Shown: positions 713 to 63,960 of the stretch, piece by piece
How the letters are laid out: each line of letters opens with the position of its first letter
Position numbering within the stretch: position 1 is the stretch's first letter
IMG/VR virus record: IMGVR_UViG_3300002461_000323
Coordinates: 32,001 to 96,000 of that record
Source of the DNA: a virus
Strand: one strand, 5' to 3'
DNA: 64,000 bases
Notes under the pieces: generated by a model
Seen by the model: the letters and a program-made list of their open reading frames with translations, nothing else
What the model was told of the DNA's origin: nothing
Database searches by the model: none
Translations under genes and position numbers: made by a program

Positions 713-1130
713 AGCACTGACCGACCTGAAGACCAAGCTGCAATCGATTGCAGGGCTGGAGACCCGGGTATTTATTTGCTACGAGCCCGCAGACCTCGAC
801 CGGCAGGTGCTGGGAGTCGCGGGCACAACCATCGGAGTCGTCTACGGCGGCCTCCGCTCGGTGAGCGAGCCTGGAACTGCCAAGCACGGGACTTCCAGCG
901 TCGGACAGTTCATGGTGTTCATGAAGCACGACACCCCTCCGTTCACGAACGCCGACAACAAGGGGCCAGCGCTCGACACGCTGGAGCGCATGCGGCAAGT
1001 GATCATGTACAAGAACTCTCCTACGGGCCACAAATGGCGGTTCGTATCCGAGTCCATGGCTACATCCAGCAAGGAGAAGACCGTGTGGATGCAGGTGTAC
1101 GACACGCCGATCCAGTTGGGCCCAGTTTGA
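696..1130 (+). CDS. Putative tail terminator protein
   Basis: GTG start after SD GAGGAGG (683-689); size about 144 aa; position just before the tail tube gene. Confidence 0.5.
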   Translation: MSKAYEALTDLKTKLQSIAGLETRVFICYEPADLDRQVLGVAGTTIGVVYGGLRSVSEPGTAKHGTSSVGQFMVFMKHDTPPFTNADNKGPALDTLERMRQVIMYKNSPTGHKWRFVSESMATSSKEKTVWMQVYDTPIQLGPV

Positions 1131-1193
1131 TAGGTGGCGCCCCCAGGTCTAGAATCCAGGCATCGCCTTTCTTAACCACCTGCGAGGATCAAC

Positions 1194-1817
1194 ATGCCAC
1201 TCGAACTCCTGAAACAATTCGGCAAGGGCGGCTCGGGCATTCCCGACCAACTGCGCTCCATCGTCACCGAACTCCAGGGTCTCTCGATCTTGGCCGTCGC
1301 AGGTGCAGCAGCCAACACCAAGATCGTGGTCCCGGCCCTCCGCCAGGAAGACACGATCATCTGCGCGATCATGTCCGCTGCGGGCGTGCTCTCGAACCTC
1401 GCCGCCGTGACCATCGACGACATCCGTGCCTCGGGTACGCTGACCGTCGGCGCAGTCGTGACCGGCAACACCGTGACCGTCAACGGCAAGGTCTACACCT
1501 ACCGCCCGGCAGCGACTGCCAACCTGTTGAACCGCGAAGTCGCGATCGGCGCGAACGCGACCGAGACCGCAGCCAACCTGGCACGTGCGATCAACCTGTA
1601 CGACGCAGTGGCCCTGATCGCCACCAGCGCAGCAGCCGTGGTCACCGTCCGTGCAGCAGCCGATGGCGTGGGCGGCAACGCGATCACGTTGGCAGCCAGT
1701 GCGAACACCACGGTCTCTGGTGCGACCCTCACCGGGGGCTCGGCCGATGGCGGCTTCCGCTCGACCACGGCTTCGGCTGGCAACACCGTCCTGTTGGCCT
1801 ACTTCAACAAGAAGTAA
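1194..1817 (+). CDS. Virion structural protein (Ala/Thr-rich, beta-rich; tail decoration candidate)
   Basis: 207-aa ORF with SD; ends in TVSGATLTGG, a pattern seen in tail structural domains. Confidence 0.5.
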   Translation: MPLELLKQFGKGGSGIPDQLRSIVTELQGLSILAVAGAAANTKIVVPALRQEDTIICAIMSAAGVLSNLAAVTIDDIRASGTLTVGAVVTGNTVTVNGKVYTYRPAATANLLNREVAIGANATETAANLARAINLYDAVALIATSAAAVVTVRAAADGVGGNAITLAASANTTVSGATLTGGSADGGFRSTTASAGNTVLLAYFNKK

Positions 1818-1849
1818 TCCACTTCAACTGAACACCAAGGAGAGCCAAC

Positions 1850-2866
1850 ATGGCATGGGACAATACCGACTACTTCTTCTCCGGACAGGGCGTGATCCTG
1901 CTCGGCGACCGCGACCTCGCTGGCAACCCTGCCGGTCTGATCCCGGTTGGCAACGTCTCCGAACTCAAGCTCACGGTCGCCACCAGCGTGTTGGAGCACA
2001 AGGAATCGAAGACCGGCCAGCGTGCGATCGACCTGCGGTTGACCACCGAGACCAAAGGCACGTTGTCGATCACGATCGAGAACTTCAACGCCACCAACCT
2101 GGCTGCAGCCCTGCGCGGTACCAAGACCGTCAAGCCTGGTGCCCCGGTGGTCGGTGAACTCTCGAAAATCTACTTCGGCAAGATCGCCCCGCTGAACCAC
2201 ATGCTGATCAGCGCGGTGACGGTCCAGCGCGGTGCGAACACGCTGACCCCGTACACGAACGACGCCACCGCCTGGGACGTGCGCGTGAACCCCGAAAGCG
2301 GTTCGCTGTTGTTCAACGATGGCGCGGTCCAGGCGCTGACGACCAACGCGACTCTGGGTGGCGTGGTGCCGTCCGCGATCGTTGTGGGCGTGACCACTCA
2401 GGTGACGGTCGCGAACACCGCCAAGGCCGGTGACTACGTGGCCCTCGCAGGCTTCGCAGGTGCAGGCGCTGCGCTGGTGAACAACAAGGCTCACCTGGTG
2501 CTCAGCGCGACCCCAACCGGCGTGGTCTTGCAGACCAACACGTTCGGCGCGACCATCACCATCGGCGTCCCGCTGGCGGTGTTCGACGGCGCGGCCCTGA
2601 CTGTCGGCTACACCTACGCGACTCAGAATCACGTGGACCCGCTGGTGCTGGGCTCGCCCGAGAAGTGGATGCGCTTCGAAGGCCTGAACACCGCCGACAA
2701 CAACGCACCTGTGGTCGTGGACATCTTCCGCTTCCTCAGCGACCCGCTGAAAGAACTCTCGTTCATCAGCGACACCATCCAGAACTTCGTGCTCGAAGGA
2801 AACATGCTGGCTGACTCCGGGCGCACCAGCGGCTCGAAGTTCTTCCGCCAGTTCATGCTCCGCTGA
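1850..2866 (+). CDS. Major tail tube protein
   Basis: YFFSGQG...VGNVSELKL...EHKESKTG N-terminus and C-terminal RFEGLNTAD; strong SD AAGGAG; followed by terminator, chaperone and tape measure. Confidence 0.85.
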   Translation: MAWDNTDYFFSGQGVILLGDRDLAGNPAGLIPVGNVSELKLTVATSVLEHKESKTGQRAIDLRLTTETKGTLSITIENFNATNLAAALRGTKTVKPGAPVVGELSKIYFGKIAPLNHMLISAVTVQRGANTLTPYTNDATAWDVRVNPESGSLLFNDGAVQALTTNATLGGVVPSAIVVGVTTQVTVANTAKAGDYVALAGFAGAGAALVNNKAHLVLSATPTGVVLQTNTFGATITIGVPLAVFDGAALTVGYTYATQNHVDPLVLGSPEKWMRFEGLNTADNNAPVVVDIFRFLSDPLKELSFISDTIQNFVLEGNMLADSGRTSGSKFFRQFMLR

Positions 2867-2887
2867 GCGACGACCTGCGGTATCATC

Positions 2888-2917
2888 AGGGGCGGCTTCG
2901 GCTGCCCCTTTTCATTT
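2888..2917 (+). terminator. Rho-independent terminator after the tail tube gene
   Basis: AGGGGCGGC-TTCG-GCTGCCCCT hairpin followed by TTTCATTT. Confidence 0.8.
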
Positions 2918-2933: not shown

Positions 2934-3440
2934 ATGACGTCTCAGAAGAAGGTCAAGATCAGTGACCTGTTCCCACCTCCCCTCGTGGTTGATCTCGGCC
3001 ATGCCAAGGTCGAAATCCAGGGCCTGTCGATCGCACAGATCGCCCTCCTGCTGGAGGAGCACGCGGAAATCCTGTCCGGTCTGCTGGACACCAAGACCCC
3101 GCCTGACGTCGTCGGCCTGTTGAAGACCAGCCCTGTGCTGGCAATGCAATTGATTGCACTGGGTCTGAACCTTGAAGCCGAAGAGCACGAGCAGGTGCAG
3201 GGCCTACCGGCGTCTGTGCAGGTGGCGATCCTGTTGGGTGTCTGGGATGCGACGGTGCCTGAGCTAAAAAAGCTCGGGGCGAGGTTCAGCGGCTTGTTGT
3301 CGGTCGCCCAAAAGAGCCTCGCCCAAAGCCCCGGCCCCGACGCTCCGGCAACGCGTCCTCCGATCCCGGATTTTCAGAGTCCCTTGCCGTCGGAGCCGAC
3401 TTCCTCGTCGGACACGGTGGATACTCCCTCAGCGACGTAG
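2934..3440 (+). CDS. Tail assembly chaperone (gpG-like)
   Basis: Lies between tail tube and tape measure; contains in-frame slippery site A-AAA-AAG at 3266-3272. Confidence 0.8.
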   Translation: MTSQKKVKISDLFPPPLVVDLGHAKVEIQGLSIAQIALLLEEHAEILSGLLDTKTPPDVVGLLKTSPVLAMQLIALGLNLEAEEHEQVQGLPASVQVAILLGVWDATVPELKKLGARFSGLLSVAQKSLAQSPGPDAPATRPPIPDFQSPLPSEPTSSSDTVDTPSAT

Positions 3441-3603: not shown

Positions 3604-6600
3604 ATGGCAGAAACGACCCTCGACATTCTCCTGCGGGTACGGAACCAGACCGGGGCCGTGCTCTCGCAGGTGTCATCCGATCTGTCGAAGATCAGAACCG
3701 CTCTGGCGAGCACCAGCCAGAACACCAAGCAGACGAACTCTGACTTCCAGCGCCTGTTCTCCACTCTGGCATCCGGCAAGGGTGAGATTCAGGGTGTGGT
3801 CAGCGGATTCCAAGGCCTCGTGGCCTCGCTCGGCGGGCTCGTGCTCGTCAACCAGATCAAAGGGCTGGCGGATGTAGCTGCCCGTACCCAGGTGCTCGGC
3901 ACGGTCCTGAACGAGATCGGGCGGGCCAGTGGCTTCTCTCGTGCAGAGATCGAGAAGTTCGACGCGGCTGTACAGAAGGCCGGTATCACTGCTGGCGCAT
4001 CCCGTCAGACTCTGACCCAGTTCCTCCAAGCTGGCCTCGACCCAGCCAAGGCCGCTGAGCTTGCGCGGGCTGCCCAGAACTTTGCGGTGGTCACCGGTGA
4101 GAACTCCAGTGCTGCGCTCTCCCGGCTGGTGACGAACATCCAGCAGATTGACGTGACCGGCCTGAAGTTCCAGGGCATCATCGTGGACATGACGAAGGTC
4201 ACAGCCGACTTCGCACGAGAGGTTGGCAAGACCCCGCAGGAACTGACCCGCGCTGAACAGCAGACGGCGCTGTTGAACGAGGTGCTGCGCAAGGGCAAGG
4301 AGTCCGGCCAGTTGTACGTCGCGGCAATGGGTGATGTCGGCAAGGCCGTGGGCTCGCTCTCGCGCTTGCAGGAGGAGCTTCAGAACTCACTGGGTGAGAA
4401 GCTGCTGCCCGCGTACAAGGCGCTGGTAGACGAGTTCGGCGTGTTCCTGAAGCAGGCGAAGCTGGTGTCCGACTCAGTGGACGCGAACGGCACGGCTGCT
4501 GAGGCCTTCGGAGAGTCGGTGCGGGCATCCGCACGGTCCCTGCGTGAGTTCGCACTGCTGCTCGTCGAGTACAGCGGTGTGGTCACGACATTCGTGCAGG
4601 CACTGCTTGGGTTCGCCGCGCTCCGGGCAGTCGCGCTGGTCTTCACGTTCATCACCAGTCAATTGGCGTTCCTGGGCCGGGCTCTGGCTACTGCCGGAAC
4701 CGCCATCGGAATCTTCGCTCGTGGCTTCTCGTTCCTGACCGCGCTGGTCTCCGGGGGCACACTCGCACTCTCCGCGCCTTTCCTGCTTGTGCTCGGAGCC
4801 ATCGGCGCTGCAGCCGTGGCCGTGGGCGCGTTCGCTCTCCAGTTTGAGCCGGTTGCCCGTATCGCGAACATCGCGCTGGCATCGATCTCCCTGGCGTACA
4901 ACCGGTTGATCGGAGACTCCGAGGGTGCAGCCGCTGCTTCCGACGCACTGTTCAACGCCGTTACCCGTGCTGGAGACGGCACCGAGGCACGCGCCGCTGC
5001 AGCCGCCAAGCTGATCGAGGTCACCCGCGAGCAAGTGGAGTTGCAGACGACGCTGATCGACCTTGAGAACGCGTTGGTGCAGGCGAACAAGACTGGCACT
5101 GCAGAGCAGCAGAAGACCGCCAAGGCTGCGTTCGATGCAGCGAAGAAGCAGAACGAAGACCTGAACGCTCAGCGGGTGGCGCTCGCCCGTGCTGGGGATG
5201 TCAGTGGGGCCACCCAGGAACTCATCCAGAAGAAGGAAGAGGAAGCTGCGGCCATCCGCAAGATCGAGATCGCGCTTGCCAAAGTCTCGGACGCTGGCAT
5301 CAAGGCACGTGAAGAGCTTGGCATCCCCGCTGGTCTGGGTGACAGCCTGCGTGCGGACGTGATCACCGCTGAGTTCGGGAAGGCCGCAGGCGCGTTCAAG
5401 AACCTGGTGGCCTCTTTCGACGCCGACCAGAAGGTGTACGCTGCGAACGTCAAGAAGTTCCAGGCAGACCTTGAGAAAGAGGGCGTTGCACCAACCGAAG
5501 CGCTGGTTCAGGCCACTCAGAAGGCTCGGGATGCCGTGCGGTTCTCGGTCAACGATCTGCGCATCGGAGTGCAATCGATTGCAGACGCTGCCAAAGCACC
5601 GGATGAGATCGCCGCTGCGATTGACCTGATCGTCAACGCTGCTGGCCGTGCGGTCACGAGTGTGGACGAACTCAAGCGCACCCTGGAGTTCCGGCTGGAG
5701 GCAGAGAGCCTGCGCCGGGTAGAGCAGAACATGCAGGGCTACAGCGAGGCCACGAAGGAGGCCCAGACCGCGCTCACGCTCCTGCGGACGGTCACCGACG
5801 ACCAGGCACGGGCCACGCTCGATCTCAGCCAGGCGTACGCGGACGTGGGTGTCAGCGCTGGCCGGGTGTTCGAGAACCTTTCGTTCGCCGGTCGCTCGGG
5901 CATCCGCAGCCTTGTGGACGGGTTCACCGGTCTGCGGTCCACCGTGGCCGAGACCAGCCGGATTGTCGATCAGGGCACCCGGCAGCAGCTTGCATCCGCG
6001 AACGGCACGTTTCAAGAGAGCCTGCGGTTGCTGGCCGACAGCGAGCGGCGCAAGCGTGAACTCGCCCAGCAGACGGTCGGAGGCAGCCAGACGTTCGCGG
6101 CGGCCCTGCGTGCGATCGAGGAGCAGTCCGTGCGCGAGCGCGTGACCATCAACCAGACCTACTACTCCCGCTTGAAAGAGCTTCGGGACAACGCGCTGTC
6201 GCAGTTCAAGACGTTCGCGAACACGATCAAGGGTCTTGACGAGGAGATTTTCCAGAACGGTGTCAACCGTGAGAAGAGCCTGCGCGACCTCAAGCGTCAA
6301 GGGCTGACCGAGGAGCAGCAGTTCGCCGACCGCCTTCTGGAGATCGACCAGCTTGCCGGGGCCGAGCGTCTGGCGATCTCGAACAAGCAGTTCGACCTGG
6401 CAAAGCAGTTGAACCAGCAGCGGATTCAGGCGGCATCCCAGCTTGCGAACTCGGGCGGTGTGCCACAGGAGGTTGCGCTTGCACGTGCGACCGAGGCCAC
6501 GAACAAGGCGTACACGGACCGTGACTCGCTCCTGCGCGGCATCCGTACCGAGACCGACAAGGCAGCCCGCACTCAATTGCAGACGTACGAGGAACTGGGC

Positions 6601-10153: not shown

Positions 10154-12073
10154 ATGGTGGACAACGCGATCTCCCCGTTCTCACGGCCACTCTCGTACGA
10201 GGGTCCGGACAACAGCGGCTTCCTCGGGGCTCCCAAGGCCAACCAGTTCGCCCAGCCATGGGGTGAGCCGTTCGAGGACGCCCAGGGCAATCCAATCAAC
10301 CCGGGTACCCAGGGCGGCCCGAACTTCCGTGCGAGCATCCAGAAGACCAAGGGCAAGTGGGGCAAGCGCCAGACCAAGGAGGTCCAGGATGTCGGGAACA
10401 TCAGTTGGTACGGCAAGCCGCTGTCCACGAAGCCGGACGCCCGGAAGATGATCCTGAGCTTCAACGGACCTACCAGCCGGTACTTCCAAGAGGAGTTCTC
10501 GTACGGCAGCACTCAGGCACACAGGGAGGTCTACCGTGAGGGTGGTCTGGTGGGAATCGCCCCTGGCCCGGTGCTCGGCGCGGCCGTGCAATCAATTGCA
10601 GTCGGCAGCCCGCCCGAACCCACGGACCACCTGAACGTCGTCTGCCTGTACAACGGTCAAGAGTTGCTCATGCGCAGGCCGCTGAAAGGCCCGTACTACC
10701 GTGCGAAGTTCGGTGAGAAGACCGAGCAGCGGCTGTCGGAGTTCAAGAGCCTGACCAACCCCGATGGCTGGGTGACTGTCGGCCAGATCACGATCTCCAA
10801 CGACTACGACCAGGCGAAGACCCCGTGGTTCTTTAACGAGAGCGGGACTGAGGCCCAGTGCATCCGCATGCGCGAGAAGCAGGGTCTGGACCGCAACGGT
10901 GCACCTGTGCCTGAGCGTGCGGGTGACCGGTTCAAGATCACGGTCGGACCATCGAACGTCAGCCTCAGCCCCGAAGGCAATGAGCCGTCGTTCGAGTTCA
11001 AGGAAGACGGCGAGTCGTTGGCGCTCCCGAACTTCACCAGCCCGATCGACCAGTTCGGGTTCACTCACAGTTGGTACGAGCACCGAGTGACCTTCAACTC
11101 GAAGATGACGGGCAAGCAGGTGGTGGCAGTCGATTACATCGGAGACACCGAAGTGCTGGTGTACGCGGTGATGGACGTTGACTACCAACTGACCAAGGAC
11201 TACATGAAGGGCCGGGACAACGAGACCGACGGCGGCATCCAGAAGGGGCCGTACGACAACCGGGGCTCGTACTCGAACCCGCAGGAACTCGGGGCTGACA
11301 AGATCAACTTCTCGGTCGGCGACCACCTGGCGCGGACCTGGTACGGCGGGAGTGCGAGCCTGACGCTGGAGTTCGAGGTCGAGGGTGTCGAGTACGTGAT
11401 TCCCCTGGAGTTCACGACCGGCCTGACATCCGATCAGTACGATGGCCGCCCGTACACACCGCCCAATCGAGACCTGTTCTACCGGGAGTACGTGATCCAG
11501 TACCCTCGGTTCTTGGACGTCCGGGGCGGCGGGATGTTCGTCAGCCGCCTGTACCAGTTCAAGGACTTCGTGGTCCAGGGGCGGAAGTCCGAGGCCGAGA
11601 GCGAGACCGTGGACTTGGACTTCGCCGACAACCAGACCAACATCTACCTGCCGGGGGCTGACAAGTGGACAGCCAGCTTCTACTCCCCGCCGAACCCGCT
11701 GAACAACAACGCAGCCAGTTGGAACGAGGTGAAGGCGTACCCGGCCGCTCCTTGGACCTGGGCGACCAAGACGTTCATCGGCAAGCGGCCGACCGAGAAC
11801 GACACGGGGATTGTCGGCAAGATTCCGTTCAAGACTTGGTTTGAGCCCACTCAGACGGTGCTCTACAATAGCTGGTACGGCCTGACCCTGCTCTACCACG
11901 ACAAGTTCACGACCGACTGCGGGTTCGCACACCGGGAAGACGGCTCGTACATCGTTAGCGGAGTGTTCGTTGACCCGGACACCAAGGCGTTGAAAGAGGC
12001 CATGCGGAGTCAGCCATTCGACGCCAAGGGCCTCACCAGCGGACAAACCTACCACCCCCTGGGTGAAATGTAA
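10154..12073 (+). CDS. Tail-associated structural protein
   Basis: 639-aa ORF, beta-rich and aromatic-rich, in the tail operon. Confidence 0.5.
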   Translation: MVDNAISPFSRPLSYEGPDNSGFLGAPKANQFAQPWGEPFEDAQGNPINPGTQGGPNFRASIQKTKGKWGKRQTKEVQDVGNISWYGKPLSTKPDARKMILSFNGPTSRYFQEEFSYGSTQAHREVYREGGLVGIAPGPVLGAAVQSIAVGSPPEPTDHLNVVCLYNGQELLMRRPLKGPYYRAKFGEKTEQRLSEFKSLTNPDGWVTVGQITISNDYDQAKTPWFFNESGTEAQCIRMREKQGLDRNGAPVPERAGDRFKITVGPSNVSLSPEGNEPSFEFKEDGESLALPNFTSPIDQFGFTHSWYEHRVTFNSKMTGKQVVAVDYIGDTEVLVYAVMDVDYQLTKDYMKGRDNETDGGIQKGPYDNRGSYSNPQELGADKINFSVGDHLARTWYGGSASLTLEFEVEGVEYVIPLEFTTGLTSDQYDGRPYTPPNRDLFYREYVIQYPRFLDVRGGGMFVSRLYQFKDFVVQGRKSEAESETVDLDFADNQTNIYLPGADKWTASFYSPPNPLNNNAASWNEVKAYPAAPWTWATKTFIGKRPTENDTGIVGKIPFKTWFEPTQTVLYNSWYGLTLLYHDKFTTDCGFAHREDGSYIVSGVFVDPDTKALKEAMRSQPFDAKGLTSGQTYHPLGEM

Positions 12074-49966: not shown

Positions 49967-49968
49967 TC

Positions 49969-50388: not shown

Positions 50389-50390
50389 TC

Positions 50391-50783: not shown

Positions 50784-50785
50784 GC

Positions 50786-51979: not shown

Positions 51980-52337
51980 CCCAAACCCTTTCCGCGCCGC
52001 CCGCCCTAAGGTGGACAACGCGCACGGCAAGCTCTACGAGGCACGGGCTGCCAAGTCCCTCGGGGCCAGGCTCACGCCGAACTCCGGGGCGATGGCGAGT
52101 GCCAAAGGGGATATGAGCACCGCCGAGTTCTTGTTCGAGAGCAAAGTCACTGTAGACTCCAGCCTCTCGGTCAAACTCGCGTGGCTGGTGAAGATCAGCG
52201 AGGAGGCTCAGGCGAAGGCCAAGCGTCCCGGGCTGATCATCGCGTTCGTCCACCCAGACGGCCGACCCAAGCCCAACTGCGAGAGCGAGTGGGTGTGTAT
52301 GCCGATGGCTGTATTTCAAGAACTGACAGAGAAATGA
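51972..52337 (+). CDS. PD-(D/E)xK nuclease / Holliday junction resolvase-like
   Basis: TTG start after AGGAG; TPNSGA..KGD..FLFESK motif. Confidence 0.7.
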   Translation: MADPNPFRAARPKVDNAHGKLYEARAAKSLGARLTPNSGAMASAKGDMSTAEFLFESKVTVDSSLSVKLAWLVKISEEAQAKAKRPGLIIAFVHPDGRPKPNCESEWVCMPMAVFQELTEK

Positions 52338-54503: not shown

Positions 54504-54522
54504 TGCAATTGATTGCGCCATA

Positions 54523-54551
54523 TTGACAAACCAAACGGGCCGGGCTATAAT
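54523..54551 (+). promoter_or_regulatory. Sigma70-type promoter
   Basis: TTGACA-N17-TATAAT, 5 bp downstream of palindrome 54504-54517. Confidence 0.9.
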
Positions 54552-54587: not shown

Positions 54588-55424
54588 ATGAGCGAAGACC
54601 AAGCAGCAGCCGCAACCGACGGCGCACAAACCCAGGTGACGGAGACGGCAGAAGCCGCGACCCTGCCTCCCACGGCTCTCGCAGCCAGCAAGGCCACGAA
54701 GTCCGGCGACCTGATCGCTGACATCGCGCACGAGATCGAGACCATGACCAAGGTCAAGGCTCTGAATCGCGCCGAGAAACTGGCCGAAGACATCGAAGCC
54801 AACTACTTCAAGCTGGGTGGCCTGCTGAAGCTGATCCTCGCACAGCAGTGGTTCGAGGGCTTCCCCTCGTTCGGCGCGTTCGTGCTGGAGAAGTTCGGTT
54901 TCGCCGAGCGCAAGGCCCATTACCTGATCAGCATCTACACCCAGTTGGTGGACAAGCAGATTCCCTGGGAAAAGGTGCAGCACCTCGGCTGGACCAAGCT
55001 CAAGGACCTCGCGGCGGTGCTCACGCCTGAGAACGTGGACGATTGGGTGGCGAAGGCCGAGAAGGTCAGCGTGGCCGAACTGCAGGCGATGCTCAAGGGC
55101 ACTGGCGGCAACGAAGGTGGCGAGCCCAGTTCCGCTGGCACGTCCGACGTCGTGTCGTGGAAGGTCAAGCTGCACAAGGACCAGCACGAGTCGGTGAACA
55201 TGGCGCTGGCGAAGGCCAAGGGCGAAATGCAGACCGACCACGACAACGTGGCGCTGGCCGCAATCTGCACCGGCTACCTTGCCAACAGTTCGGGTGTGGT
55301 GGCCTCCGGCCCCGCCGCCGATCCCGTGGAGACCTTCAAGTCCATGGGCTACGAGGCAGTGTTGGGCGTGTTCGAACAATCGTTCCCGAACATCGACCTT
55401 GAAGTCACGGTGAAAGCCGCGTAA
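54588..55424 (+). CDS. Putative DNA-binding protein (DUF3102-like helical/HTH region)
   Basis: YFKLGGLLKLI..SFGAFVLEKFGFAERKAHYLISIY..LGWTKL motif pattern. Confidence 0.5.
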   Translation: MSEDQAAAATDGAQTQVTETAEAATLPPTALAASKATKSGDLIADIAHEIETMTKVKALNRAEKLAEDIEANYFKLGGLLKLILAQQWFEGFPSFGAFVLEKFGFAERKAHYLISIYTQLVDKQIPWEKVQHLGWTKLKDLAAVLTPENVDDWVAKAEKVSVAELQAMLKGTGGNEGGEPSSAGTSDVVSWKVKLHKDQHESVNMALAKAKGEMQTDHDNVALAAICTGYLANSSGVVASGPAADPVETFKSMGYEAVLGVFEQSFPNIDLEVTVKAA

Positions 55425-56230: not shown

Positions 56231-56671
56231 GTGGCAATCACGATCAAGATAGTTCCGAGCGCAGCCGTGCAATCACTTGCAGCCGCCCAAGAGAAGGCAG
56301 CGGCAGCAGTCGCAACCCCGGTGGCAGTCTCTGCCCCGCCAGAGCCCGCCCCGATTGCCGTGGCCTCTGAGAAGGCGGCAGAAGCAGGAAGCACGTTTCT
56401 GGCAGCACTAGCGGGCAAGGCCGAGGCCCCGCTGCCCTGGGAGGCCGATGAGTCGTACACGATCATGGAGGCGCTGAAAGAGCACTTCGATCGCTCACGC
56501 AAGGGTGAGACCCTGTATCTGCGCAACCGTACGACCGGTCAGATGTTCTTGGTCAAGGGCTACAACTCTGATGACGGCCGAGCCCTGCTGGAGAGCCCGG
56601 AAAAGGCTACACTCAAGCCCGTGATCACGAAGCGCGAGGTCCCGCTCTACGAGCCGTTCTGGAGGTCTTGA
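56231..56671 (+). CDS. Hypothetical protein
   Basis: GTG start after AAGGAG; Ala/Pro-rich N-terminus and globular C-terminus. Confidence 0.55.
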   Translation: MAITIKIVPSAAVQSLAAAQEKAAAAVATPVAVSAPPEPAPIAVASEKAAEAGSTFLAALAGKAEAPLPWEADESYTIMEALKEHFDRSRKGETLYLRNRTTGQMFLVKGYNSDDGRALLESPEKATLKPVITKREVPLYEPFWRS

Positions 56672-56732
56672 CCAACCGCTGTACATGGGTGTGATCCCCG
56701 GCGATAATCAGACTTTAGTCAAGGCCCGACAA

Positions 56733-57536
56733 ATGGCAATCACGGTGAAATACTCGGAGACCGCAGAATCTCCAGAGCCACAGATCAAGCGTCAGAAGTC
56801 CACCCGGGGCCGTCCTCCGGGCGTGGTCGAGACCGCTCCGCGTAAACCGCGCACCGCCCAGAGCGCCCGTCTGCGCCAGTTCAAAGAGAACGCGAAGCTC
56901 CCAGAGGTGGCGGCTAAGATCGTGGAGAAGGTCGAAGAAACCGCTGGCATGACCGACGACCAACTGTTGGAGCGTGCACGGACTGTCCCGGACGCACGTG
57001 GCGGGTACAACAAGGGCGTGCAGTCGATAACCGATGAGAAGGCCGAGCGGATTGCCCTGGCCTACCGGCTGATGATCCGTGGCCTGACAGTCGATCAGGT
57101 GGCAGAGCAGATGGACGTCTCGGTGGCGACTGCCAAGAGCTACCTTGAGGACGTACGCAAGGCCCTGCGGCTTGACCCAAAGAACCTGGACGTCGGTTAC
57201 TACATGGGCGAGAGCTTGAGCTTCTACCAGGAGATCAGGCAGATGGCGCTGCTGCAGGCCAGCCACGGCAAGAACAGCGTGAACGAGAAGATCAATGCCA
57301 TGCGCGTTGCGTTGGAAGCCGAAGAGCGCAAGAACCAGTTCCTGCAGAAGATCGGCGTGTACAGCCCGACCGTGATCGAGCGGATCGAGCGCTGGATGGT
57401 CGCGGGCACCGAGAAGCAGATCGATGAGAGCCCGACCCAGAGCAAGCGCGTGAACCTCGCGGCTGAGATCGGCCGACTGCTTGCAGGCCAGTCCCGCCCG
57501 CTGGAGTCCGGTGGCCCTGAGCCTGTGGGCGGCTGA
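56733..57536 (+). CDS. Terminase small subunit (HTH)
   Basis: RGLTVDQVAEQMDVSVATAKSYL HTH; directly upstream of TerL. Confidence 0.65.
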   Translation: MAITVKYSETAESPEPQIKRQKSTRGRPPGVVETAPRKPRTAQSARLRQFKENAKLPEVAAKIVEKVEETAGMTDDQLLERARTVPDARGGYNKGVQSITDEKAERIALAYRLMIRGLTVDQVAEQMDVSVATAKSYLEDVRKALRLDPKNLDVGYYMGESLSFYQEIRQMALLQASHGKNSVNEKINAMRVALEAEERKNQFLQKIGVYSPTVIERIERWMVAGTEKQIDESPTQSKRVNLAAEIGRLLAGQSRPLESGGPEPVGG

Positions 57537-57538
57537 TC

Positions 57539-59428
57539 GTGCAATCGATTGCAGCCGACGGCCTCGAAGGCCTCGACCCGTTGCACGTGCTCGAACTGGC
57601 AAAGCACAAGCCGGACGTCCTGCTGCAGTGGCTCTACCAGAACCTTGAGAACCCTCCGGAGAAGCTGGACGAGCAGTGGATTCAGGCGATCCATCGTGGC
57701 GGTCGCCGGTCAACTGGACTGCACATCGACCAGGAGTTCACGCTGGCGATGCAACTCAGCCGGTACCCAGTGGACATCGAGACCTTCCTGTTCGGACGCC
57801 ACTACCTGCAGAAAGAGCGCCGGGAAATCTACCCGGAAGTCCTGCAGGAACTGAAGAACATCAACAACCCGAGCGGCCTGCGGATCATCAACCCGTACAC
57901 CGAGGGCGTGTTCACAGGCGGCATCGGCTCAGCCAAGAGTACGACCGCGCTGTACACCAACGCCTACCAGTTGTACGTGCTCAGTTGCTTCGAGAGCCCG
58001 CACGCGACGTTCGGCCTGGACACGGCATCCGAGATCGTGTTCGCGTTCCTGGCGGTTGCCGGTAATGCCGCAGACACCGATTACAGCCGGTTCTACCAGA
58101 TGCTCAAGGAGAGCCCGTACTTCAACCTGGAGTTTCCGTACAACCGCCGTCTTGAGTCGGAGATGCACTTCCCGCACCGCATACAGGTGGTCCCGCAGAT
58201 CAACACCATCGGCCAGAACGTGATGGGTGGGCTGATCGACGAGGTGAACTTCGGTCAGGTGATCCAGAACTCCAAGCGCTCGATCGACGGCGGCACCTAC
58301 GACCAGACGCTGACCGTCTACAACGGCCTGGCTCGACGCAGGAAATCCCGGTTCTTGGGGCAGGGCACGATGCCCGGCATCCTCTGTCTGGTGTCGTCCA
58401 AGCGGTACCCTGGCGAGTTCACGGACAAGAAGCTGGAGGAGGCACGGACTGACCCCAGCATCTACGTGTACGACAAGCGGGTGTGGGACGTGAAGCCCGA
58501 GGGCACGTACAGCGGCAAGCGCTTCAAAGTGTTTCCAGGGTCGGTTCAGCGCAAGCCCGTGGTGATCACGCCCGAGATCGAGATCGAGTTGTCGGTCGAG
58601 GAGAAGGCGGCGCTGATCGAGGTGCCCATCGAGTACCGCAAGGAATTCACGGATGACATGATCGGCTCGCTCCGGGACATCGCGGGCGTGAGCACGATCG
58701 CCAGACACCCGTACTTCCAGAACGTGAACGCGGTGAGCGGGTGCTTCGGCCAGCGCCAGTCGATCCTGAACCTGGAGGCCACGGACTTCGAGACCAGCCA
58801 GCTTCAGTTCTTCGCCAAACGCATCCGCCACCCGCAGCTACCCCGTTGGGCGCACATCGACTTGGGCGTGACCTCCGACAGCGCAGGCATCGCCTGTGGG
58901 TATGTCCCGCAGTTTGTGCTCAGCCCGGACGAGATCGGGATGATGCCGCAGGTTGAATTCGACTTCATTCTGCGGGCAACCCCGCCGCTGAACGGCGAGA
59001 TCAAGTTCTACAAGATCAGGAAGATGTTGATGGCCCTGCGCGAGGCCGGGATGAACATCAAGTGGGTGTCGTTCGACGCCTTCCAGTCTGTTGACAGCAT
59101 CCAGATTCTGCGGAACGCCGGATTCTCCACCGGCAGGCAGTCGGTTGACCAGAACGCGGGCTTCTACGGGGTGCTGAAAACCGCGATGTACGCGAACCGC
59201 GTGAAGGCCCCGCAGCACACCGTCTGCCAGACAGAGATTTTGCGCTTGGAGCGGGACACGCGCACTGGTAAGATCGACCACCCACCAGACGGCTCCAAGG
59301 ATTGTTCTGACGCAATGGCGGGTGTGGTCTACGGTCTGACCATGCGCAGAGAGATTTGGAGCATGCACAATGTCCCATTCAACCAGATTTATCAATCGGT
59401 CAAGGAAGTACAGGTGAAAACAGAATGA
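57539..59428 (+). CDS. terL: Terminase large subunit
   Basis: GGIGSAKST Walker A, LIDEVN Walker B, LVSS, WAHIDLG and KIDHPPDGSKDCSDA nuclease motifs. Confidence 0.88.
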   Translation: MQSIAADGLEGLDPLHVLELAKHKPDVLLQWLYQNLENPPEKLDEQWIQAIHRGGRRSTGLHIDQEFTLAMQLSRYPVDIETFLFGRHYLQKERREIYPEVLQELKNINNPSGLRIINPYTEGVFTGGIGSAKSTTALYTNAYQLYVLSCFESPHATFGLDTASEIVFAFLAVAGNAADTDYSRFYQMLKESPYFNLEFPYNRRLESEMHFPHRIQVVPQINTIGQNVMGGLIDEVNFGQVIQNSKRSIDGGTYDQTLTVYNGLARRRKSRFLGQGTMPGILCLVSSKRYPGEFTDKKLEEARTDPSIYVYDKRVWDVKPEGTYSGKRFKVFPGSVQRKPVVITPEIEIELSVEEKAALIEVPIEYRKEFTDDMIGSLRDIAGVSTIARHPYFQNVNAVSGCFGQRQSILNLEATDFETSQLQFFAKRIRHPQLPRWAHIDLGVTSDSAGIACGYVPQFVLSPDEIGMMPQVEFDFILRATPPLNGEIKFYKIRKMLMALREAGMNIKWVSFDAFQSVDSIQILRNAGFSTGRQSVDQNAGFYGVLKTAMYANRVKAPQHTVCQTEILRLERDTRTGKIDHPPDGSKDCSDAMAGVVYGLTMRREIWSMHNVPFNQIYQSVKEVQVKTE

Positions 59429-60630
59429 GCGAAGAGCAATCAATTGCAGCCACGGACGAACTCCCGCCAGCGCCGGTCGTCCCCGTTGATCTCGAAGAAG
59501 GCAAGGTCTACAACCAGACTCCGCGCTTCATGCACATGCGCCACCTGGAGTGGAACGTGGTCGAGGCCGCGAAAGCCCGAATCCGCTGGTGCATCAGCAA
59601 CTTCGATGACGTCTGGGTCAGCTTCTCTGGCGGCAAAGACTCGCTGGTGGTGCTGAAGTTGGTCGAGCAGGTGTACGAAGAACTCGGGATCACCGAGAAG
59701 ATCAAGGTCAAGTTCATGGACGAAGAACTCGTCTGCGACGACATCATTGACTTCGTGTTCGAGGTCGCTGAGAGCGGCAAGTACGACTTCCACTGGTACG
59801 CTCTGCAGATGTACGTGGGCTTCTACGTGATGGGCAAGCACAAGCCCTTCGTCTCCTGGGACCCTGAGCGCAAGTGGCACCGCCAGCCGCCTGATCGCCC
59901 GTACGTGATCTACGATGTGGGCCACCCCACGCGTGACGAGAACGAGAACTCGATCTCCAAGTTCATGTACAAGGACACCAGCCGTCGCACGGTCGAACTC
60001 CTGGGCCTGCGGGCAGACGAGAGCATGAAGCGGTACCTGTCGGTGAAGGCCGGTGGCATCAGCGCTCCCAACTACCTGAGCAACGGCATGATCCCGCACA
60101 TCTACGCGGGCAAGCCGATCTACGACTTCACTGAGACCGACATCTTCAAGTTCTTCAAGGACCACGGCATCAAGTACTGCCCGTTCTACGATGTGCAGGT
60201 GTGGTCGAAGTCCCCGCTGCGTGTGGCCTCGACCATGCACGAGCGCGGTCAGGCGCAGTTCTTCAAGATGAAGGAACTGGCTCCCAAGTACTACGAGCAG
60301 CTTCGCCAGTTGTACCCGGAAGTCGAGACCCACTACCGCTACGGCCAGGAAATGGCTGTCGGCCAGGAAATGGAACTCTACCCGCACTCCTGGGAAGGCA
60401 TCCGCCAGTACATCGCCGACAAGATCGATCCCGGCCACAAGGCTGAGGCTCTGGAGTTCGTCAAGCGCTACGAGATCAAGCGGATCGGCCAACTCCGGGA
60501 CAACCCGGGCAAGCCGTTGGGCGGCGTGAGCATGCTCAAGGTCTTCCGCCAGGTCATGAACGGCCGGTTCGTGAAGTCGGCCACGCTGTTGCATGAGATC
60601 ACTCAAGCGGACATCGACTATGAACAATAA
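59425..60630 (+). CDS. PAPS-reductase-family PP-loop protein (IbrA/YbdN-like)
   Basis: NVVEAAKARI..VWVSFSGGKDS, FMDEE, LLGLRADES..RY, KPIYDF..DI motifs. Confidence 0.85.
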   Translation: MSEEQSIAATDELPPAPVVPVDLEEGKVYNQTPRFMHMRHLEWNVVEAAKARIRWCISNFDDVWVSFSGGKDSLVVLKLVEQVYEELGITEKIKVKFMDEELVCDDIIDFVFEVAESGKYDFHWYALQMYVGFYVMGKHKPFVSWDPERKWHRQPPDRPYVIYDVGHPTRDENENSISKFMYKDTSRRTVELLGLRADESMKRYLSVKAGGISAPNYLSNGMIPHIYAGKPIYDFTETDIFKFFKDHGIKYCPFYDVQVWSKSPLRVASTMHERGQAQFFKMKELAPKYYEQLRQLYPEVETHYRYGQEMAVGQEMELYPHSWEGIRQYIADKIDPGHKAEALEFVKRYEIKRIGQLRDNPGKPLGGVSMLKVFRQVMNGRFVKSATLLHEITQADIDYEQ

Positions 60631-61045
60631 CCTGATCAAGGGCGACTTCCTCATCCGGTGCCTGAAGGGCTTGGACTTCAAGCCGTCCACCGAGTTGAAG
60701 GCCACGCCCGGGGTGACCTGGGACAATGACGAGAACCACGTGTGGTACGTCGCGTTCTTCGAAGACCGGATGGTCGCCTGCTGTGGCATGTTCGTGAAGA
60801 ACCGGGTGGCCCGCTTCAAGACGGACGTCGTGCTCCCGGAGTTCCGTGGGCAGGGCCTGTACCGCATGCTCTTCGACATGCGCCAGGCCTATGCAATCAA
60901 TTGCAGCGACAGCGTGACCACGTTCTCGAACGAGCAGTCCCGGCATATGTACGTGAAGAATGGGTTCACGGCCAAGGGCACGGAGACCGACCGGAAGGTC
61001 CTGTACATGGGCAAGACTTTTGACAAACCCGTGAAACAGTGGTAA
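60620..61045 (+). CDS. GNAT-family acetyltransferase
   Basis: VLPEFRGQGLY (motif A) and MYVKNGF (motif B). Confidence 0.85.
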   Translation: MNNNLIKGDFLIRCLKGLDFKPSTELKATPGVTWDNDENHVWYVAFFEDRMVACCGMFVKNRVARFKTDVVLPEFRGQGLYRMLFDMRQAYAINCSDSVTTFSNEQSRHMYVKNGFTAKGTETDRKVLYMGKTFDKPVKQW

Positions 61046-61048
61046 AAT
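61020..61048 (+). promoter_or_regulatory. Sigma70-type promoter
   Basis: TTGACA-N17-TAAAAT. Confidence 0.8.
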
Positions 61049-61072
61049 GGGGACAGCAAAGGAGTGCTGTTC

Positions 61073-61657
61073 ATGTCCCAATTCACCCAGCAAATGATCA
61101 ATAAATCGTATAACGGATGGTCCTCAGAAATCAGGACCGTCAGGGGCACACTGTTCTACAATCTCGTCCGCAAGGGCGTACTCCCCCGGGCCAAGGCCTG
61201 TGAACTCTGCGGCAGCACCCAGGGCCTGACCTTCCACGCGGAGGAGTACGGGAGCACCTGGTCCGACTACCTTCAGTCCTGCCACGCGCTCTGCTGCTAC
61301 TGCCACGCGACAGTCCACGTGCGGCATCGGTACCCCAACCGGTGGTCGCGGTTCGTTCAGCGGGCGATCTCCGGGGAAATGCCGGAGTTTCCGTACACGA
61401 GCATGAGCGAGGTCTACGGTGCGTACCGCACGATCAAGGACCTGGACGAGCCCGTACCCGCCCCTGCCGGAGACCACTGGTTGCTGAAGCTCCCGGTCAT
61501 GGGTTATGATGGCATTCCGAAAGTCGCTCTGGCCGAGGAACTTCAGGGTCTCGTGCCGGATTTCAAAATCTACCCCGGGGACCTGCAGACGCTCTCGGGC
61601 ATGCGGTACGAAGCGACAACCGCCACCCTCACCCCATACGAATGGAGTCTCCCTTGA
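61073..61657 (+). CDS. HNH-like zinc-finger protein
   Basis: CELCG..FHAEEY..LCCYCHATVH. Confidence 0.65.
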   Translation: MSQFTQQMINKSYNGWSSEIRTVRGTLFYNLVRKGVLPRAKACELCGSTQGLTFHAEEYGSTWSDYLQSCHALCCYCHATVHVRHRYPNRWSRFVQRAISGEMPEFPYTSMSEVYGAYRTIKDLDEPVPAPAGDHWLLKLPVMGYDGIPKVALAEELQGLVPDFKIYPGDLQTLSGMRYEATTATLTPYEWSLP

Positions 61658-62226
61658 AGCACCCGATCGAGAACTTTCAGTGGTTGGACGTCAACCTGCT
61701 GGAGAGCAACGACTACAACCCCAACCACGTGCAAGACACGGAAATGAAGCTGTTGTCTCTGTCGCTGCTCAAGCAGGGCTGGATTCAGCCGATCTTGGTC
61801 TGGAAGAAGCCTGACGGTAGCGGAAAGTACGTGATCATCGACGGCTTCCACCGCTACTCGGTCACCCGTACGGACAAGCGCGTGTGGGCGATGACCGACG
61901 GTAAGGTCCCGGCTGTGACCATGGACATGACCGAGGCCGAGCGCAAGCTGCTGACCATCCGGATCAACCGCGCCAAGGGTACGCATGCGGCGTTCAAGAT
62001 GCACGAGATCGTCACCTCGTGTGTGCGAGACCACGGCATGAGCATCCAGCAGGTGTGCCAGGAGATTGGTGCAGACGCCGACGAAGTCCAGACCCTGCTG
62101 GCCGCTGATGTGTTCGAGAAGAAGCAGGTGGACAAATTCAACTACAGCCGCTCGTGGGTTCCTCCGCACGCCAAGGTCTGGGGCATGGACCCTCAGCCCG
62201 TGGAAGAGCAGACCCAAGCACGCTGA
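61642..62226 (+). CDS. ParB/Srx-domain protein (IbrB/YbdM-like)
   Basis: NDYNPNHV..EMKLL..GWIQPILV..IIDGFHR..TIRINRAKGTH. Confidence 0.88.
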   Translation: MESPLKHPIENFQWLDVNLLESNDYNPNHVQDTEMKLLSLSLLKQGWIQPILVWKKPDGSGKYVIIDGFHRYSVTRTDKRVWAMTDGKVPAVTMDMTEAERKLLTIRINRAKGTHAAFKMHEIVTSCVRDHGMSIQQVCQEIGADADEVQTLLAADVFEKKQVDKFNYSRSWVPPHAKVWGMDPQPVEEQTQAR

Positions 62227-62238
62227 TCCGGAGCACCT

Positions 62239-62763
62239 ATGACCGAGCCGACCAAGCCCACCAAGGCGTACAGCGTTCAGTTCCTGAACCCGCAGACGCT
62301 CCACCCGTACTACCGGAACAACAAGGCGCACAACAAGCGGCAGATCACCCTGCTGGCCCGCGTCCTCCGCACCCACGGCTTCGATCAGCCGATCGTCGTG
62401 GACAAGGACTTGGTGATCATCAAAGGCCACGGACGCTGGCAGGCTGCGCTCGAAGCCAAGTACACGATGATCCCGGTGGTCATCCGCGATGATCTGGAAG
62501 AGTGGGAAGTCCAGGCCAGCCGGATCGCCGACAACCAGGCGTTCGCGATCTCCGAGATCGACGGAGAGAAGTCCCGGGCCGAGGTCGATGCGTACGTCAA
62601 GGAAGGCGGCGTGGGTGCTGAGTTCTACTTCGACTTCCTGCGCCCCCCGACCAAGAAGAGCGAGACCCCAGCCTCGTCCATCCATCAGGTGTCCGCCCAC
62701 GAGAGCGTGGCTGGCAAGCTGGTGACCTGCCCCAAGTGCAACCACACGCAGATGGAACTCTGA
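62239..62763 (+). CDS. ParB N-terminal-domain protein with C-terminal CxxC
   Basis: LHPYYRNNKAH, GFDQPIVVD, IIKGHGRW, RIADN, CPKCNH. Confidence 0.85.
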   Translation: MTEPTKPTKAYSVQFLNPQTLHPYYRNNKAHNKRQITLLARVLRTHGFDQPIVVDKDLVIIKGHGRWQAALEAKYTMIPVVIRDDLEEWEVQASRIADNQAFAISEIDGEKSRAEVDAYVKEGGVGAEFYFDFLRPPTKKSETPASSIHQVSAHESVAGKLVTCPKCNHTQMEL

Positions 62764-62764
62764 C

Positions 62765-63229
62765 ATGAACATCCAGTTGCTCGATCCGAAGACGCTCGTC
62801 CACTACGAGCGCAACTCCAAGAAGCACCCGACCGAGCAGGTCGAGGCGATTGCGATGTCGATCAAGAGCTTCGGCTTCGACCAGCCGATCGTTGTTGATG
62901 CGAACCTCGTGATCATCAAAGGCCATGGCCGCTGCTTGGCGGCTATCAGCCTGGGCATGCCCGAAGTCCCGGTGGTCATCCGCGACGACGTGAGCGACAA
63001 CGACGCCCGGTTCCTGCGCGAGGTCGATAACCAGATTCAGTCGGCGGAGTGGGACCGCGAGAACCTGGCCTCCGAGTTGAACGAACTGCGCTTGGCCGGT
63101 CGTCTGGAGTTCACGCTGTTCACCGAGGACAAGATTCCGGTGCTCCCGCAGATGAACATCACGGTCAAGGCCCAGCCGTTCGACCTCACGACCCAGCACA
63201 CCTGCAACTCCTGCAGCTACAAGTGGTGA
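62765..63229 (+). CDS. ParB N-terminal-domain protein with C-terminal CxxC (paralog)
   Basis: YERNSKKH, GFDQPIVVD, IIKGHGRC, VDN, CNSCSYKW. Confidence 0.85.
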   Translation: MNIQLLDPKTLVHYERNSKKHPTEQVEAIAMSIKSFGFDQPIVVDANLVIIKGHGRCLAAISLGMPEVPVVIRDDVSDNDARFLREVDNQIQSAEWDRENLASELNELRLAGRLEFTLFTEDKIPVLPQMNITVKAQPFDLTTQHTCNSCSYKW

Positions 63230-63234
63230 ACCCC

Positions 63235-63960
63235 ATGAGCAAAACAGTTCTCGTGAGCACGGTCGCTGATCGTCGTGCAATTGATTGCGCGGAAGTCCTG
63301 TCGTGCGAGCAGTTCATCAAGCGTGAAGAAGCTGGCGGGACCGTGCTGATCGAGCCGACGTTCCTGGACTTCCGGGGCGCTGGCAACAGCCAACTCGGCT
63401 ACCCGTTCATGGCCGTCGGCCACGCGCAGACCCGGTACGACCGGATTGGCGTGTTCCTCTACTACACGATGGAGAACGCACGCCAGTTCAAAGGCTACGT
63501 GCTGGACCTGCGGGCCAAGCTGGAGTCCACGCACAGCCACCTGGAGGTGATGACGCTCCCGCTCGTGACCTGTGGCGTGCCGATCTCCGGTACCACGCTG
63601 GTGATCAAGGCCAGCAAGGGTCCGTGGGAGCCCGCGCTGAAGACCGAGCCGGTCATGCCCGACAAATACTTCCCGGGCATGCTCGCGCACGTGCTCCGCA
63701 ACCGCCCGAACTTCCCGATCAACGTCAGCAGCCGATTCATCGGCGCGGTCCGGTCCGACCTGAACCTGCTGCCACCGCTGAACGCTTGGTCAGGCCGGTC
63801 GCTGATGGTCGAGTACCAGCGCGAGCGCACGACCGAGATCACGAGGATGACGCCCGAGCACGTCGGCCAGTTGTTTGGCGTGAAGCCTGCGCCGTACACC
63901 GACGACCTGGCGATGATCCTGCCGCACGGCGTGGTCGAGGCATTCTCCAACGCAGAGTGA
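63235..63960 (+). CDS. Degenerate DNA cytosine-C5 methyltransferase-like protein
   Basis: Motif order PTFLDFRGAG (IV), MENA (VI), CGVPISG (VIII), RMTPEHVGQLFG (IX); catalytic Cys and motif I absent. Confidence 0.5.
   Translation: MSKTVLVSTVADRRAIDCAEVLSCEQFIKREEAGGTVLIEPTFLDFRGAGNSQLGYPFMAVGHAQTRYDRIGVFLYYTMENARQFKGYVLDLRAKLESTHSHLEVMTLPLVTCGVPISGTTLVIKASKGPWEPALKTEPVMPDKYFPGMLAHVLRNRPNFPINVSSRFIGAVRSDLNLLPPLNAWSGRSLMVEYQRERTTEITRMTPEHVGQLFGVKPAPYTDDLAMILPHGVVEAFSNAE

Follow-up and report, generated by a model that had tools for sequence, protein, structure and literature searches.

A genome-wide lattice of evenly spaced palindromes in a virus related to Stenotrophomonas phage DLP5, and its candidate ParB-fold reader

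Introduction

What would hold one short palindrome at nearly regular intervals along a whole viral chromosome, mostly inside genes? The question arises from a 64,000-bp stretch of DNA (the window), bases 32001-96000 of the complete linear 105,951-bp IMG/VR virus record IMGVR_UViG_3300002461_000323, labelled here G000. A preliminary description, made from the letters of the window, had noticed 15 exact and 16 near-exact copies of a palindrome and had proposed that a dimeric protein reads them genome-wide, that selection acts on the DNA, and that the system is undescribed. Here, we describe the distribution and conservation of this lattice in the whole genome and in related phages, together with the phage protein that we consider its likeliest reader.

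Results

Abundance, spacing and coding context of the palindrome

We recovered the same 15 exact copies of TGCAATYRATTGCA in the window, and 31 copies at two mismatches or fewer, at the same coordinates (Table 1); dinucleotide-preserving shuffles give 0.00 and 0.35, respectively. Over the whole 105,951-bp genome, the counts are 22 and 52. Further written forms of the motif are TGCAATCRATTGCA and TGCAATCAATTGCA. The palindromic core, 14 bp long in G000 and widened to 16-18 bp in the related genome G002, has the consensus YGCAAT-YR-ATTGCR, and C or G is weakly favoured at both flanks of the G000 sites. The centre dinucleotide is CA at 21 of the 52 sites, TG at 16 and CG at 12, and the sites have no strand sense. 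Nearly all genes of this genome (61% G+C) lie on the + strand.

The spacing of the sites is far more even than random placement would produce. Across the genome the mean gap is 2029 bp, with a coefficient of variation (CV) of 0.49 and a largest gap of 4153 bp. When 52 points are placed at random, the CV is 0.98 and the largest gaps average 9053 bp. The observed CV was matched by none of 20,000 random sets, and the observed largest gap by 5 of 100,000. Within the window (mean gap 2085 bp, CV 0.51), the largest gap is likewise 4153 bp, in line with the earlier remark that gaps do not much exceed 4 kb.

With genes called by a heuristic based on G+C at third codon positions (GC3), 24 of the 31 window sites and 35 of the 52 genome sites fall wholly within open reading frames (ORFs). 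Sites outside ORFs are in excess (17/52 versus 12% non-coding DNA, P = 1e-4), yet two thirds of all sites are still intragenic. They are read in all three frames, as QSIA or QLIA (20 times), CNRLQ-type peptides (8 times) and AINC or AIDC (5 times). The codons that they impose are rare in this genome, CAA providing 21% of Gln, TCA 6% of Ser, ATT 12% of Ile, TTG 14% of Leu and AAT 11% of Asn codons. The first impression of mostly intragenic sites, read in three frames and forcing uncommon AT-rich codons (CAA, TCA, ATT and TTG, all minority codons), is thus accurate. The codon-preserving shuffle that had been proposed as a check points the same way. When synonymous codons were permuted within each gene, keeping the protein, the codon usage of each gene and the intergenic DNA fixed, the coding sites were lost: 5.1 exact copies remained in the genome (maximum 7) versus 22 observed, and 21.9 copies at two mismatches or fewer (maximum 26) versus 52, 18 of these 21.9 being the unshuffled intergenic sites.

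Occurrence in other phages and lineage variants

A megablast search of cultured phages with 15 kb of the window returned no nucleotide relative, and the relatives of G000 are recognizable at the protein level only. Its major capsid protein shares 62% identity with those of the Stenotrophomonas phages DLP5, DLP3 and Summit (genus Delepquintavirus), 54% with that of Rhodobacter phage RcZahn and 49% with that of Rhizobium phage RHph_TM16, and its gene order is that of DLP5. Sites at two mismatches or fewer number 36 in DLP5, 34 in DLP3, 36 in Summit, 26 in RcZahn and 7 in RHph_TM16, so that the motif occurs in phages of both gamma- and alpha-proteobacterial hosts. An exact-match scan of IMG/VR returned many more contigs; about 26 of the 49 that we re-scanned have a lattice, and the other 23 have a single chance match. 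Among those with a lattice are the complete genomes G013 (21 cores in 100 kb) and G047 (20 cores in 120 kb), as well as G027 (27 cores in 63 kb). In every lattice genome compared in full, the CV of the spacing lies between 0.41 and 0.61.

The motif itself varies with phage lineage. Almost all sites of DLP5, DLP3 and Summit have a CA or TG centre (26 of 31 in DLP5), whereas the CG centre found at 12 of 52 sites in G000 is present nearly throughout in G002 and G003. The flanks take the form CTGCA...TGCAG in G002 and TTGCA...TGCAA in G004. RHph_TM16 has its own variant, GTGCAAYATRTTGCAC (also written TGCAAYATRTTGCA), and G049 has TGCAAGCGATTGCA seven times. G006, which has the same replication module, lacks the G000 motif and carries TGCACACGTGTGCA 10 times in 76.8 kb, versus 0.00 expected. 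Such differences between phage lineages in the centre, the flanks and sometimes the half-site point to coevolution of reader and phage.

The motif is not mentioned in the papers on DLP3, DLP5 and RcZahn, and we found no account of a lattice in these phages; a literature search with the letters of the motif returned only one unrelated short hairpin RNA oligonucleotide. A paper on hypermodification in 'DLP3' proved irrelevant, its subject being an Acinetobacter phage of the same name.

Purifying selection and turnover of sites

Comparison of close relatives indicates purifying selection on the lattice sites. When DLP5 is aligned with DLP3, identity is 97.7% over the 14 motif positions as compared with 83.2% over the 200-bp flanks, and 28 of the 34 aligned sites have no change at any of the 14 bases, whereas the flank rate predicts 7.6% of such sites. 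In the comparison with Summit, 32 of 34 sites are unchanged. In diverged genomes, sites within orthologous genes stand mostly at different alignment columns. It follows that single sites come and go over long times while their density and even spacing are kept, which is what the preliminary description had thought worth looking for in relatives.

A candidate reader with a ParB-like fold

Several genes of the window had been named as possible partners of the palindromes. The one at 54588, which encodes a 278-aa member of phrog_17202, has gained most from the analysis. The protein has no Pfam family; 5,727 of the 50%-identity cluster representatives are related to it (E <= 1e-3), and its DLP5 orthologue is gp066 (YP_009619961.1). 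In the predicted fold, residues 52-177 form a helix-turn-helix DNA-binding domain of the ParB/Spo0J/Noc/KorB type, with putative recognition-helix residues at about 106-117 and 134-137. The best structural match is Spo0J-parS (4umk; score 10.1, root-mean-square deviation 3.0, 111 residues), followed by ParB-parS (6t1f, 9.0), Noc-NBS (6y93, 9.0), KorB-OB (1r71, 7.1) and SopB (3mkz, 4.5). Several entries of the Raf1 N-domain score 8-9.6, and unrelated entries 4.1 or less. The ParB_N domain had no Pfam match in the candidate reader or in 25 relatives. The ParA family PF01656 had no match in the complete G000 genome at E <= 0.1, whereas all 14 control genomes match.

The candidate reader is predicted to form a homodimer. 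The prediction scores 0.70, the best of three controls scoring 0.00, with a contact agreement of at least 87% between runs and a partner pLDDT (predicted local distance difference test) of at least 77; the mark used is passed by 20 of 30 proteins whose solved structures are pairs of one chain, and by 1 of 23 single-chain structures. Residues 1-35 are disordered in the model, and many phrog_17202 orthologues have long N-terminal tails rich in Lys, Ala and Pro and in acidic residues. A locus search with the single candidate-reader protein gave four close relatives; no longer fused forms were found, which is weak evidence.

Sites at promoters bring the gene and the lattice together. Near-consensus sigma-70 promoters (TTGACAAAC-N-TAnAAT) number 20 in G000 and are confined to the + strand, and four lattice sites stand 5-11 bp 5' of a -35 element. 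One of these is the site at 54504-54517, which ends 5 bp before the -35 element (beginning at 54523) of the promoter of the candidate reader gene itself. This arrangement recurs: of 14 diverged genomes, 10 have a site between -120 and +75 of the start of the reader gene, where 7% would be expected. Among other conserved genes, start-proximal sites were found for the head protease in 9 of 12 genomes, the AAA ATPase in 5 of 11 and the portal in 4 of 11, and for 12 further genes in 0-2 genomes each. DNA-binding proteins that regulate themselves typically have a conserved operator at the promoter of their own gene. The strong early promoter of the candidate reader gene has a lattice site right next to its -35 element, so that autoregulation is probable.

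A conserved leader, caacaaC-GCAATGGAGTGCA-nn-ATG, comes after many of the promoters, and its ribosome-binding site (RBS) GGAG lies within a two-mismatch form of the palindrome. The copy at 34701 is such a leader variant of early promoter cassettes, unlike ordinary lattice sites, and a second copy stands at 64053, just past the end of the window.

Genes that accompany the lattice

A protein comparison over 18 genomes was used for genes travelling with the lattice. A set of genes is always present in sufficiently complete lattice genomes: DnaB-type helicase, primase, phrog_17226 (grouped by ESM Atlas with gp32-like single-strand DNA-binding proteins), superfamily 2 (SF2) helicase, a 136-aa protein, UvsX/RecA, Cas4-like exonuclease, RuvC-like resolvase, phrog_17202 and large terminase. 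Besides phrog_17202, no protein of this module has a recognized function or fold that reads the sequence of double-stranded DNA. Every lattice genome at least 62% complete encodes phrog_17202, except G002. Between the latter and G000, no shared protein was detected even with profile searches. However, the complete genome G001, which has terminal repeats, combines a replication module and terminase of the DLP5 kind with structural genes shared with G002, and the G002 contig stops precisely at the structural gene whose neighbour in G001 is the terminase and replication module; G002 is truncated at this boundary and is no counter-example. G001 and G002 also have in common a holin, an endolysin, an HNH nuclease and an N6/N4 DNA methylase, so that G001 is a mosaic. 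In the window, the T4-like replication and recombination module, kept in all lattice phages, includes the gp32-like protein (Table 1).

The three tandem ParB_N-only genes of G000, which had also been put forward as partners of the lattice, are not needed for it. Genes of this kind are present in many relatives and adjoin the phrog_17202 gene in G003, G004, G013 and G031; they are absent from G006 and from the two complete lattice genomes G001 and G047, and we reject them as a universal reader. They may be an accessory. In G000 they close a cluster directly 3' of the large terminase gene, with a PAPS-reductase-like PP-loop gene, a GNAT gene and a 197-aa gene. This cluster is IbrA/IbrB-like and is missing from some lattice genomes.

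Outside the window, at 10825-13023 of the genome, lies a gene for a 732-aa protein that matches the 'kinase' family phrog_18609 (E 1e-172) and whose DLP3 counterpart is annotated as pyruvate phosphate dikinase. This gene and its neighbours are conserved in DLP5, RcZahn, TM16, G047 and G027. The kinase-like protein may be related to the DNA modification behind the resistance of DLP3 DNA to 15 restriction enzymes.

Table 1. Lattice sites and other features of the window. Positions count from the first base of the window; mismatches are to the 14-bp palindrome.
Feature	Position	Strand	Remarks
Candidate reader gene	54588..55424	+	278 aa, phrog_17202; residues 52-177 ParB/Spo0J/Noc/KorB-like predicted fold, no ParB_N
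Promoter of candidate reader gene	54523..54551	+	consensus sigma-70-type, TTGACAAAC...TATAAT
Lattice site	739..752	none	exact, TGCAATCGATTGCA, in ORF
Lattice site	3145..3158	none	exact, in ORF
Lattice site	5570..5583	none	exact, in 1188-aa tape-measure-like ORF
Lattice site	6568..6581	none	2 mismatches, in ORF
Lattice site	10587..10600	none	exact, in ORF
Lattice site	14483..14496	none	1 mismatch, in ORF
Lattice site	14921..14934	none	exact, in ORF
Lattice site	18644..18657	none	1 mismatch, in ORF
Lattice site	18809..18822	none	exact, in ORF
Lattice site	21135..21148	none	exact, in ORF
Lattice site	25288..25301	none	exact, in ORF
Lattice site	27598..27611	none	exact, junction of two ORFs
Lattice site	29577..29590	none	1 mismatch, in ORF
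Lattice site	30603..30616	none	exact, in ORF
Lattice site	32706..32719	none	1 mismatch, intergenic
Early-gene leader variant GCAATGGAGTGCA	34701..34714	+	2 mismatches; RBS GGAG inside; 44 nt past -10 of promoter 34629
Lattice site	34979..34992	none	exact, intergenic; 11 bp 5' of -35 of consensus promoter 35004
Lattice site	37928..37941	none	1 mismatch; 10 bp 5' of -35 of promoter 37952
Lattice site	40477..40490	none	exact, in AAA ATPase gene
Lattice site	41628..41641	none	2 mismatches; intergenic by heuristic gene call
Lattice site	42773..42786	none	2 mismatches, in DnaD/O-like initiator gene
Lattice site	45872..45885	none	1 mismatch, in ORF
Lattice site	48834..48847	none	exact, in SF2 helicase gene; DLP5 site at same alignment position
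Lattice site	50838..50851	none	1 mismatch, in UvsX/RecA-like gene
Lattice site	53303..53316	none	2 mismatches, in RuvC-like gene; DLP5 and G047 sites at same alignment position
Lattice site	54504..54517	none	1 mismatch; 5 bp 5' of -35 of candidate reader gene's promoter
Lattice site	56268..56281	none	1 mismatch, in ORF
Lattice site	57540..57553	none	exact, first codons of large terminase gene
Lattice site	59435..59448	none	1 mismatch; just 3' of terminase stop, in PAPS-reductase-like ORF
Lattice site	60892..60905	none	exact, in GNAT gene
Lattice site	63276..63289	none	1 mismatch, in ORF
Near-consensus promoters	34629, 35004, 37952, 40748, 45198, 47707, 54523, 61020	+	12 more elsewhere in genome
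Replication/recombination module	43933..53679		T4-like
gp32-like protein gene	47750..48586		in module
MerR-like gene	49969..50388		rival reader candidate
136-aa protein gene	50373..50783		rival reader candidate
Helix-turn-helix gene 5' of terminase	56685..57536		rival reader candidate
PAPS-reductase-like/GNAT/ParB_N cluster	59356..63229		directly 3' of large terminase
Three tandem small ParB_N-only genes	61642..63229	+	194/174/154 aa; rival reader candidates

Discussion

A docking lattice for a phage-encoded protein

With moderate confidence, we propose that the palindromes are docking sites for a dimeric DNA-binding protein of the phage itself, most likely the phrog_17202 protein, and that they serve to organize the phage chromosome. 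Selection would hold about one site per 2-3 kb regardless of the gene that is hit. The reader, a 278-aa protein with a ParB/Spo0J/Noc/KorB-type helix-turn-helix and a putative C-terminal dimerization region, would probably regulate its own gene through the site abutting the -35 element. A few other sites stand at promoters or operon starts, 5' of the genes for the head protease, the portal and the AAA ATPase, most sites being intragenic. By analogy with KorB of plasmid RK2 and Noc of Bacillus, the reader would mark and organize the whole phage chromosome. The outcome could be a genome-wide damping of transcription, or else the DNA could be compacted and tethered during replication, recombination, packaging or a plasmid-prophage state. 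DLP5 lysogenizes as a plasmid (PMC5834331).

This proposal keeps the dimeric reader and the DNA-level selection of the preliminary description, and adds to them the purifying selection, site turnover, lineage variation and predicted dimer described above, together with the ParB/KorB-like domain of the product of 54588 and the site at its promoter; the binding of the protein to the sites, and its effect, we infer.

Several observations weigh against the proposal. The link to ParB is structural, since neither a profile search of PDB sequences nor Pfam detected it at the sequence level, and binding of the candidate reader to the palindromes is itself a prediction. The even spacing suggests that each site serves one to two kilobases; ParB and KorB spread from their sites by means of the ParB_N cytidine triphosphatase (CTPase) domain, and for a protein lacking this sliding domain both the mechanism and the need for even spacing are unexplained. 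The argument from the promoter site is not unique to the reader, given that the head protease gene has a start-proximal site nearly as often. G005, which is 55% complete, has five exact sites and no phrog_17202 in the part available. Finally, the match between phrog_17202 clades and motif centres could reflect mere shared ancestry.

Alternative explanations

The array could bind a phage protein other than phrog_17202, which we consider unlikely. Candidates would be the ParB_N-only proteins, the MerR-like protein, the helix-turn-helix protein encoded 5' of the terminase, the 136-aa protein, or a protein too small or diverged to be noticed. MerR-like and sigma-r4-like helix-turn-helix proteins are indeed encoded, the 136-aa protein is universal in the module, and the proximity of ParB_N genes to phrog_17202 in four genomes fits such a role. 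However, the ParB_N genes are missing from the three lattice genomes named above, and the MerR-like protein was found by tblastn only in G000 and DLP5. The 136-aa gene has a start-proximal site in only 1 of 13 genomes, and its position directly against the UvsX gene suggests a recombination mediator.

It is distinctly unlikely that the sites are targets of an enzyme, either for nicks of the kind known from phage T5 or for modification by the PAPS-reductase/GNAT/ParB_N cluster or a methylase. The position of genes for a PP-loop enzyme, a GNAT and three ParB_N proteins just 3' of the terminase gene is suggestive, and the DNA of DLP3 resists all 15 restriction enzymes tried, including ClaI, and is therefore modified (PMC7326821). 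Resistance to 15 unrelated enzymes nevertheless argues for a global modification rather than one directed at a 14-bp sequence, and the modification cluster is absent from complete lattice genomes. Nick motifs, where known, are asymmetric, which also counts against this explanation.

An improbable alternative is that a LacI-family repressor or another factor of the host binds the sites, and that the replicating phage soaks up or borrows this factor. The resemblance to LacI operators that had been pointed out is real in bacteria: in Dyella (L199:4094-4107) and Undibacterium (L127:5127-5140) the exact 14-mer lies between a gene for a LacI-family regulator and a gene for a TonB-dependent receptor, so that the analogy holds in cells. 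Among the phage sites, those with a CG centre (12 of 52 in G000) match the operator pattern TGnAAnCGnTTnCA and those with a CA or TG centre do not. It does not extend to a phage-encoded repressor, as the LacI helix-turn-helix PF00356 had no match above the cut-off in G000-G004 or DLP5. The exact 14-mer occurs one to four times in the 4.3-5.7 Mb genomes of Stenotrophomonas, Dyella and Pseudoxanthomonas, in promoter regions where examined, and a scan of bacterial genomes gave, among the matches listed, scattered single matches and no host signal. Moreover, the motif is common to phages of different host classes and varies with phage lineage rather than host-wide, neither the CA-centred sites of the DLP5 type nor TGCACACGTGTGCA of G006 resemble the LacI pattern, and a decoy array would need no even spacing.

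That the palindromes are recombination hot spots for the exchange of modules between co-infecting phages is very improbable. G001 is a mosaic of modules of the DLP5 and G002 kinds, the motif being present in G001, DLP5 and G002 alike, and the phages encode UvsX and two resolvases; but 14 bp of identity is short for homologous exchange, and no such link was seen for the repeats of Cluster O mycobacteriophages (PMC4351075). Packaging (pac) sites are also unlikely, because the lattice is present both in the circularly permuted RcZahn (PMC8601537) and in the direct-terminal-repeat records G001, G013 and G031.

Hairpins in RNA or single-stranded DNA, acting as terminators or processing sites, are hardly credible and were rejected: a stem of 5-6 bp with a 4-nt loop can be drawn, but it folds no better than shuffles (z -1.65 to +0.21), no uridine tract lies 3' of the sites, strand sense is lacking, and departures from the consensus in G000 are one-sided, with no compensatory partner. 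Hairpins no stabler than shuffles and one-sided departures together place the signal in double-stranded DNA.

Implications

If the docking proposal is true, a family of thousands of proteins gains a function, and phages a new mode of whole-chromosome organization or silencing. It is tempting, though tentative, to go further and suggest that a large ParB-fold family without CTPase domain or ParA, with its 5,727 representatives, uses evenly spaced, lineage-specific palindromes to mark the phage chromosome as 'self' and gather it into an organized or silenced body, a simple phage chromatin that would be widespread in phages of about 100 kb with a T4-like replication module. The presence of the lattice in the cultured phages DLP5, DLP3, Summit and RcZahn makes the docking hypothesis directly testable. 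There is also a practical side: about two thirds of the sites constrain codon choice, and recoding or engineering of these therapeutic-candidate phages would disturb them unknowingly.

Comparison with known systems

Genome-wide arrays of palindromes in phages were seen earlier, and never explained, in Cluster O mycobacteriophages such as Corndog, which have more than 30 dyad-symmetric repeats of 17 bp throughout the genome, partly intragenic, mostly away from promoters and predicted to be bound by a dimer (PMC4351075). G000 likewise has more than 30 copies of one palindrome (52, 35 of them in ORFs). The Cluster O repeats differ in sequence (TGTTCGGNNNCCGAACA), host phylum and phage lineage; about one third are coding, and they are denser at one genome end. 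No reader was proposed for them, even spacing was not reported and their function was left unexplained (PMC4351075). The claim of an undescribed system must therefore be narrowed, since an array of this general kind is published. The novelty lies in the family of motifs, in its occurrence in proteobacterial phages that are in culture, in the evidence that spacing is selected and that sites turn over, and in a concrete candidate reader.

Cluster A stoperators resemble the lattice in that tens of repressor sites extend over whole genomes of temperate phages, some of them plasmid prophages, and serve silencing (PMC6550527). They are, however, asymmetric 13-mers oriented with transcription and mostly lie between genes, whereas the G000 sites are palindromic, without strand sense and mostly intragenic.

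The proposed reader shares with the ParB/KorB/Noc family the helix-turn-helix, a palindrome of 14 bp (13-16 bp in the family) and the predicted dimer, and differs from it by the absence of ParB_N and ParA. In Bacillus subtilis, the scattered palindromes NBS, read by Noc, organize the chromosome; Noc keeps the CTPase domain, together with a membrane-targeting helix, and its sites have a density of about 1 per 60 kb as compared with 1 per 2 kb in G000. The IncP plasmid RK2 carries about a dozen OB sites, versus 52 mostly intragenic and evenly spaced sites in G000. KorB contains a CTPase domain of the ParB_N type and has IncC and KorA as partners, in contrast with the phage candidate, which has no ParB_N in a genome with no ParA. 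Nevertheless, KorB and its OB sites offer a close parallel: a dimeric ParB-fold helix-turn-helix protein, predicted on the phage side, reads a short palindrome scattered across a mobile genome, with some sites abutting promoters and others distant or intragenic, and repression by KorB reaches promoters as far as 1.5 kb away from an OB site, close to half the spacing seen here (PMC11790492).

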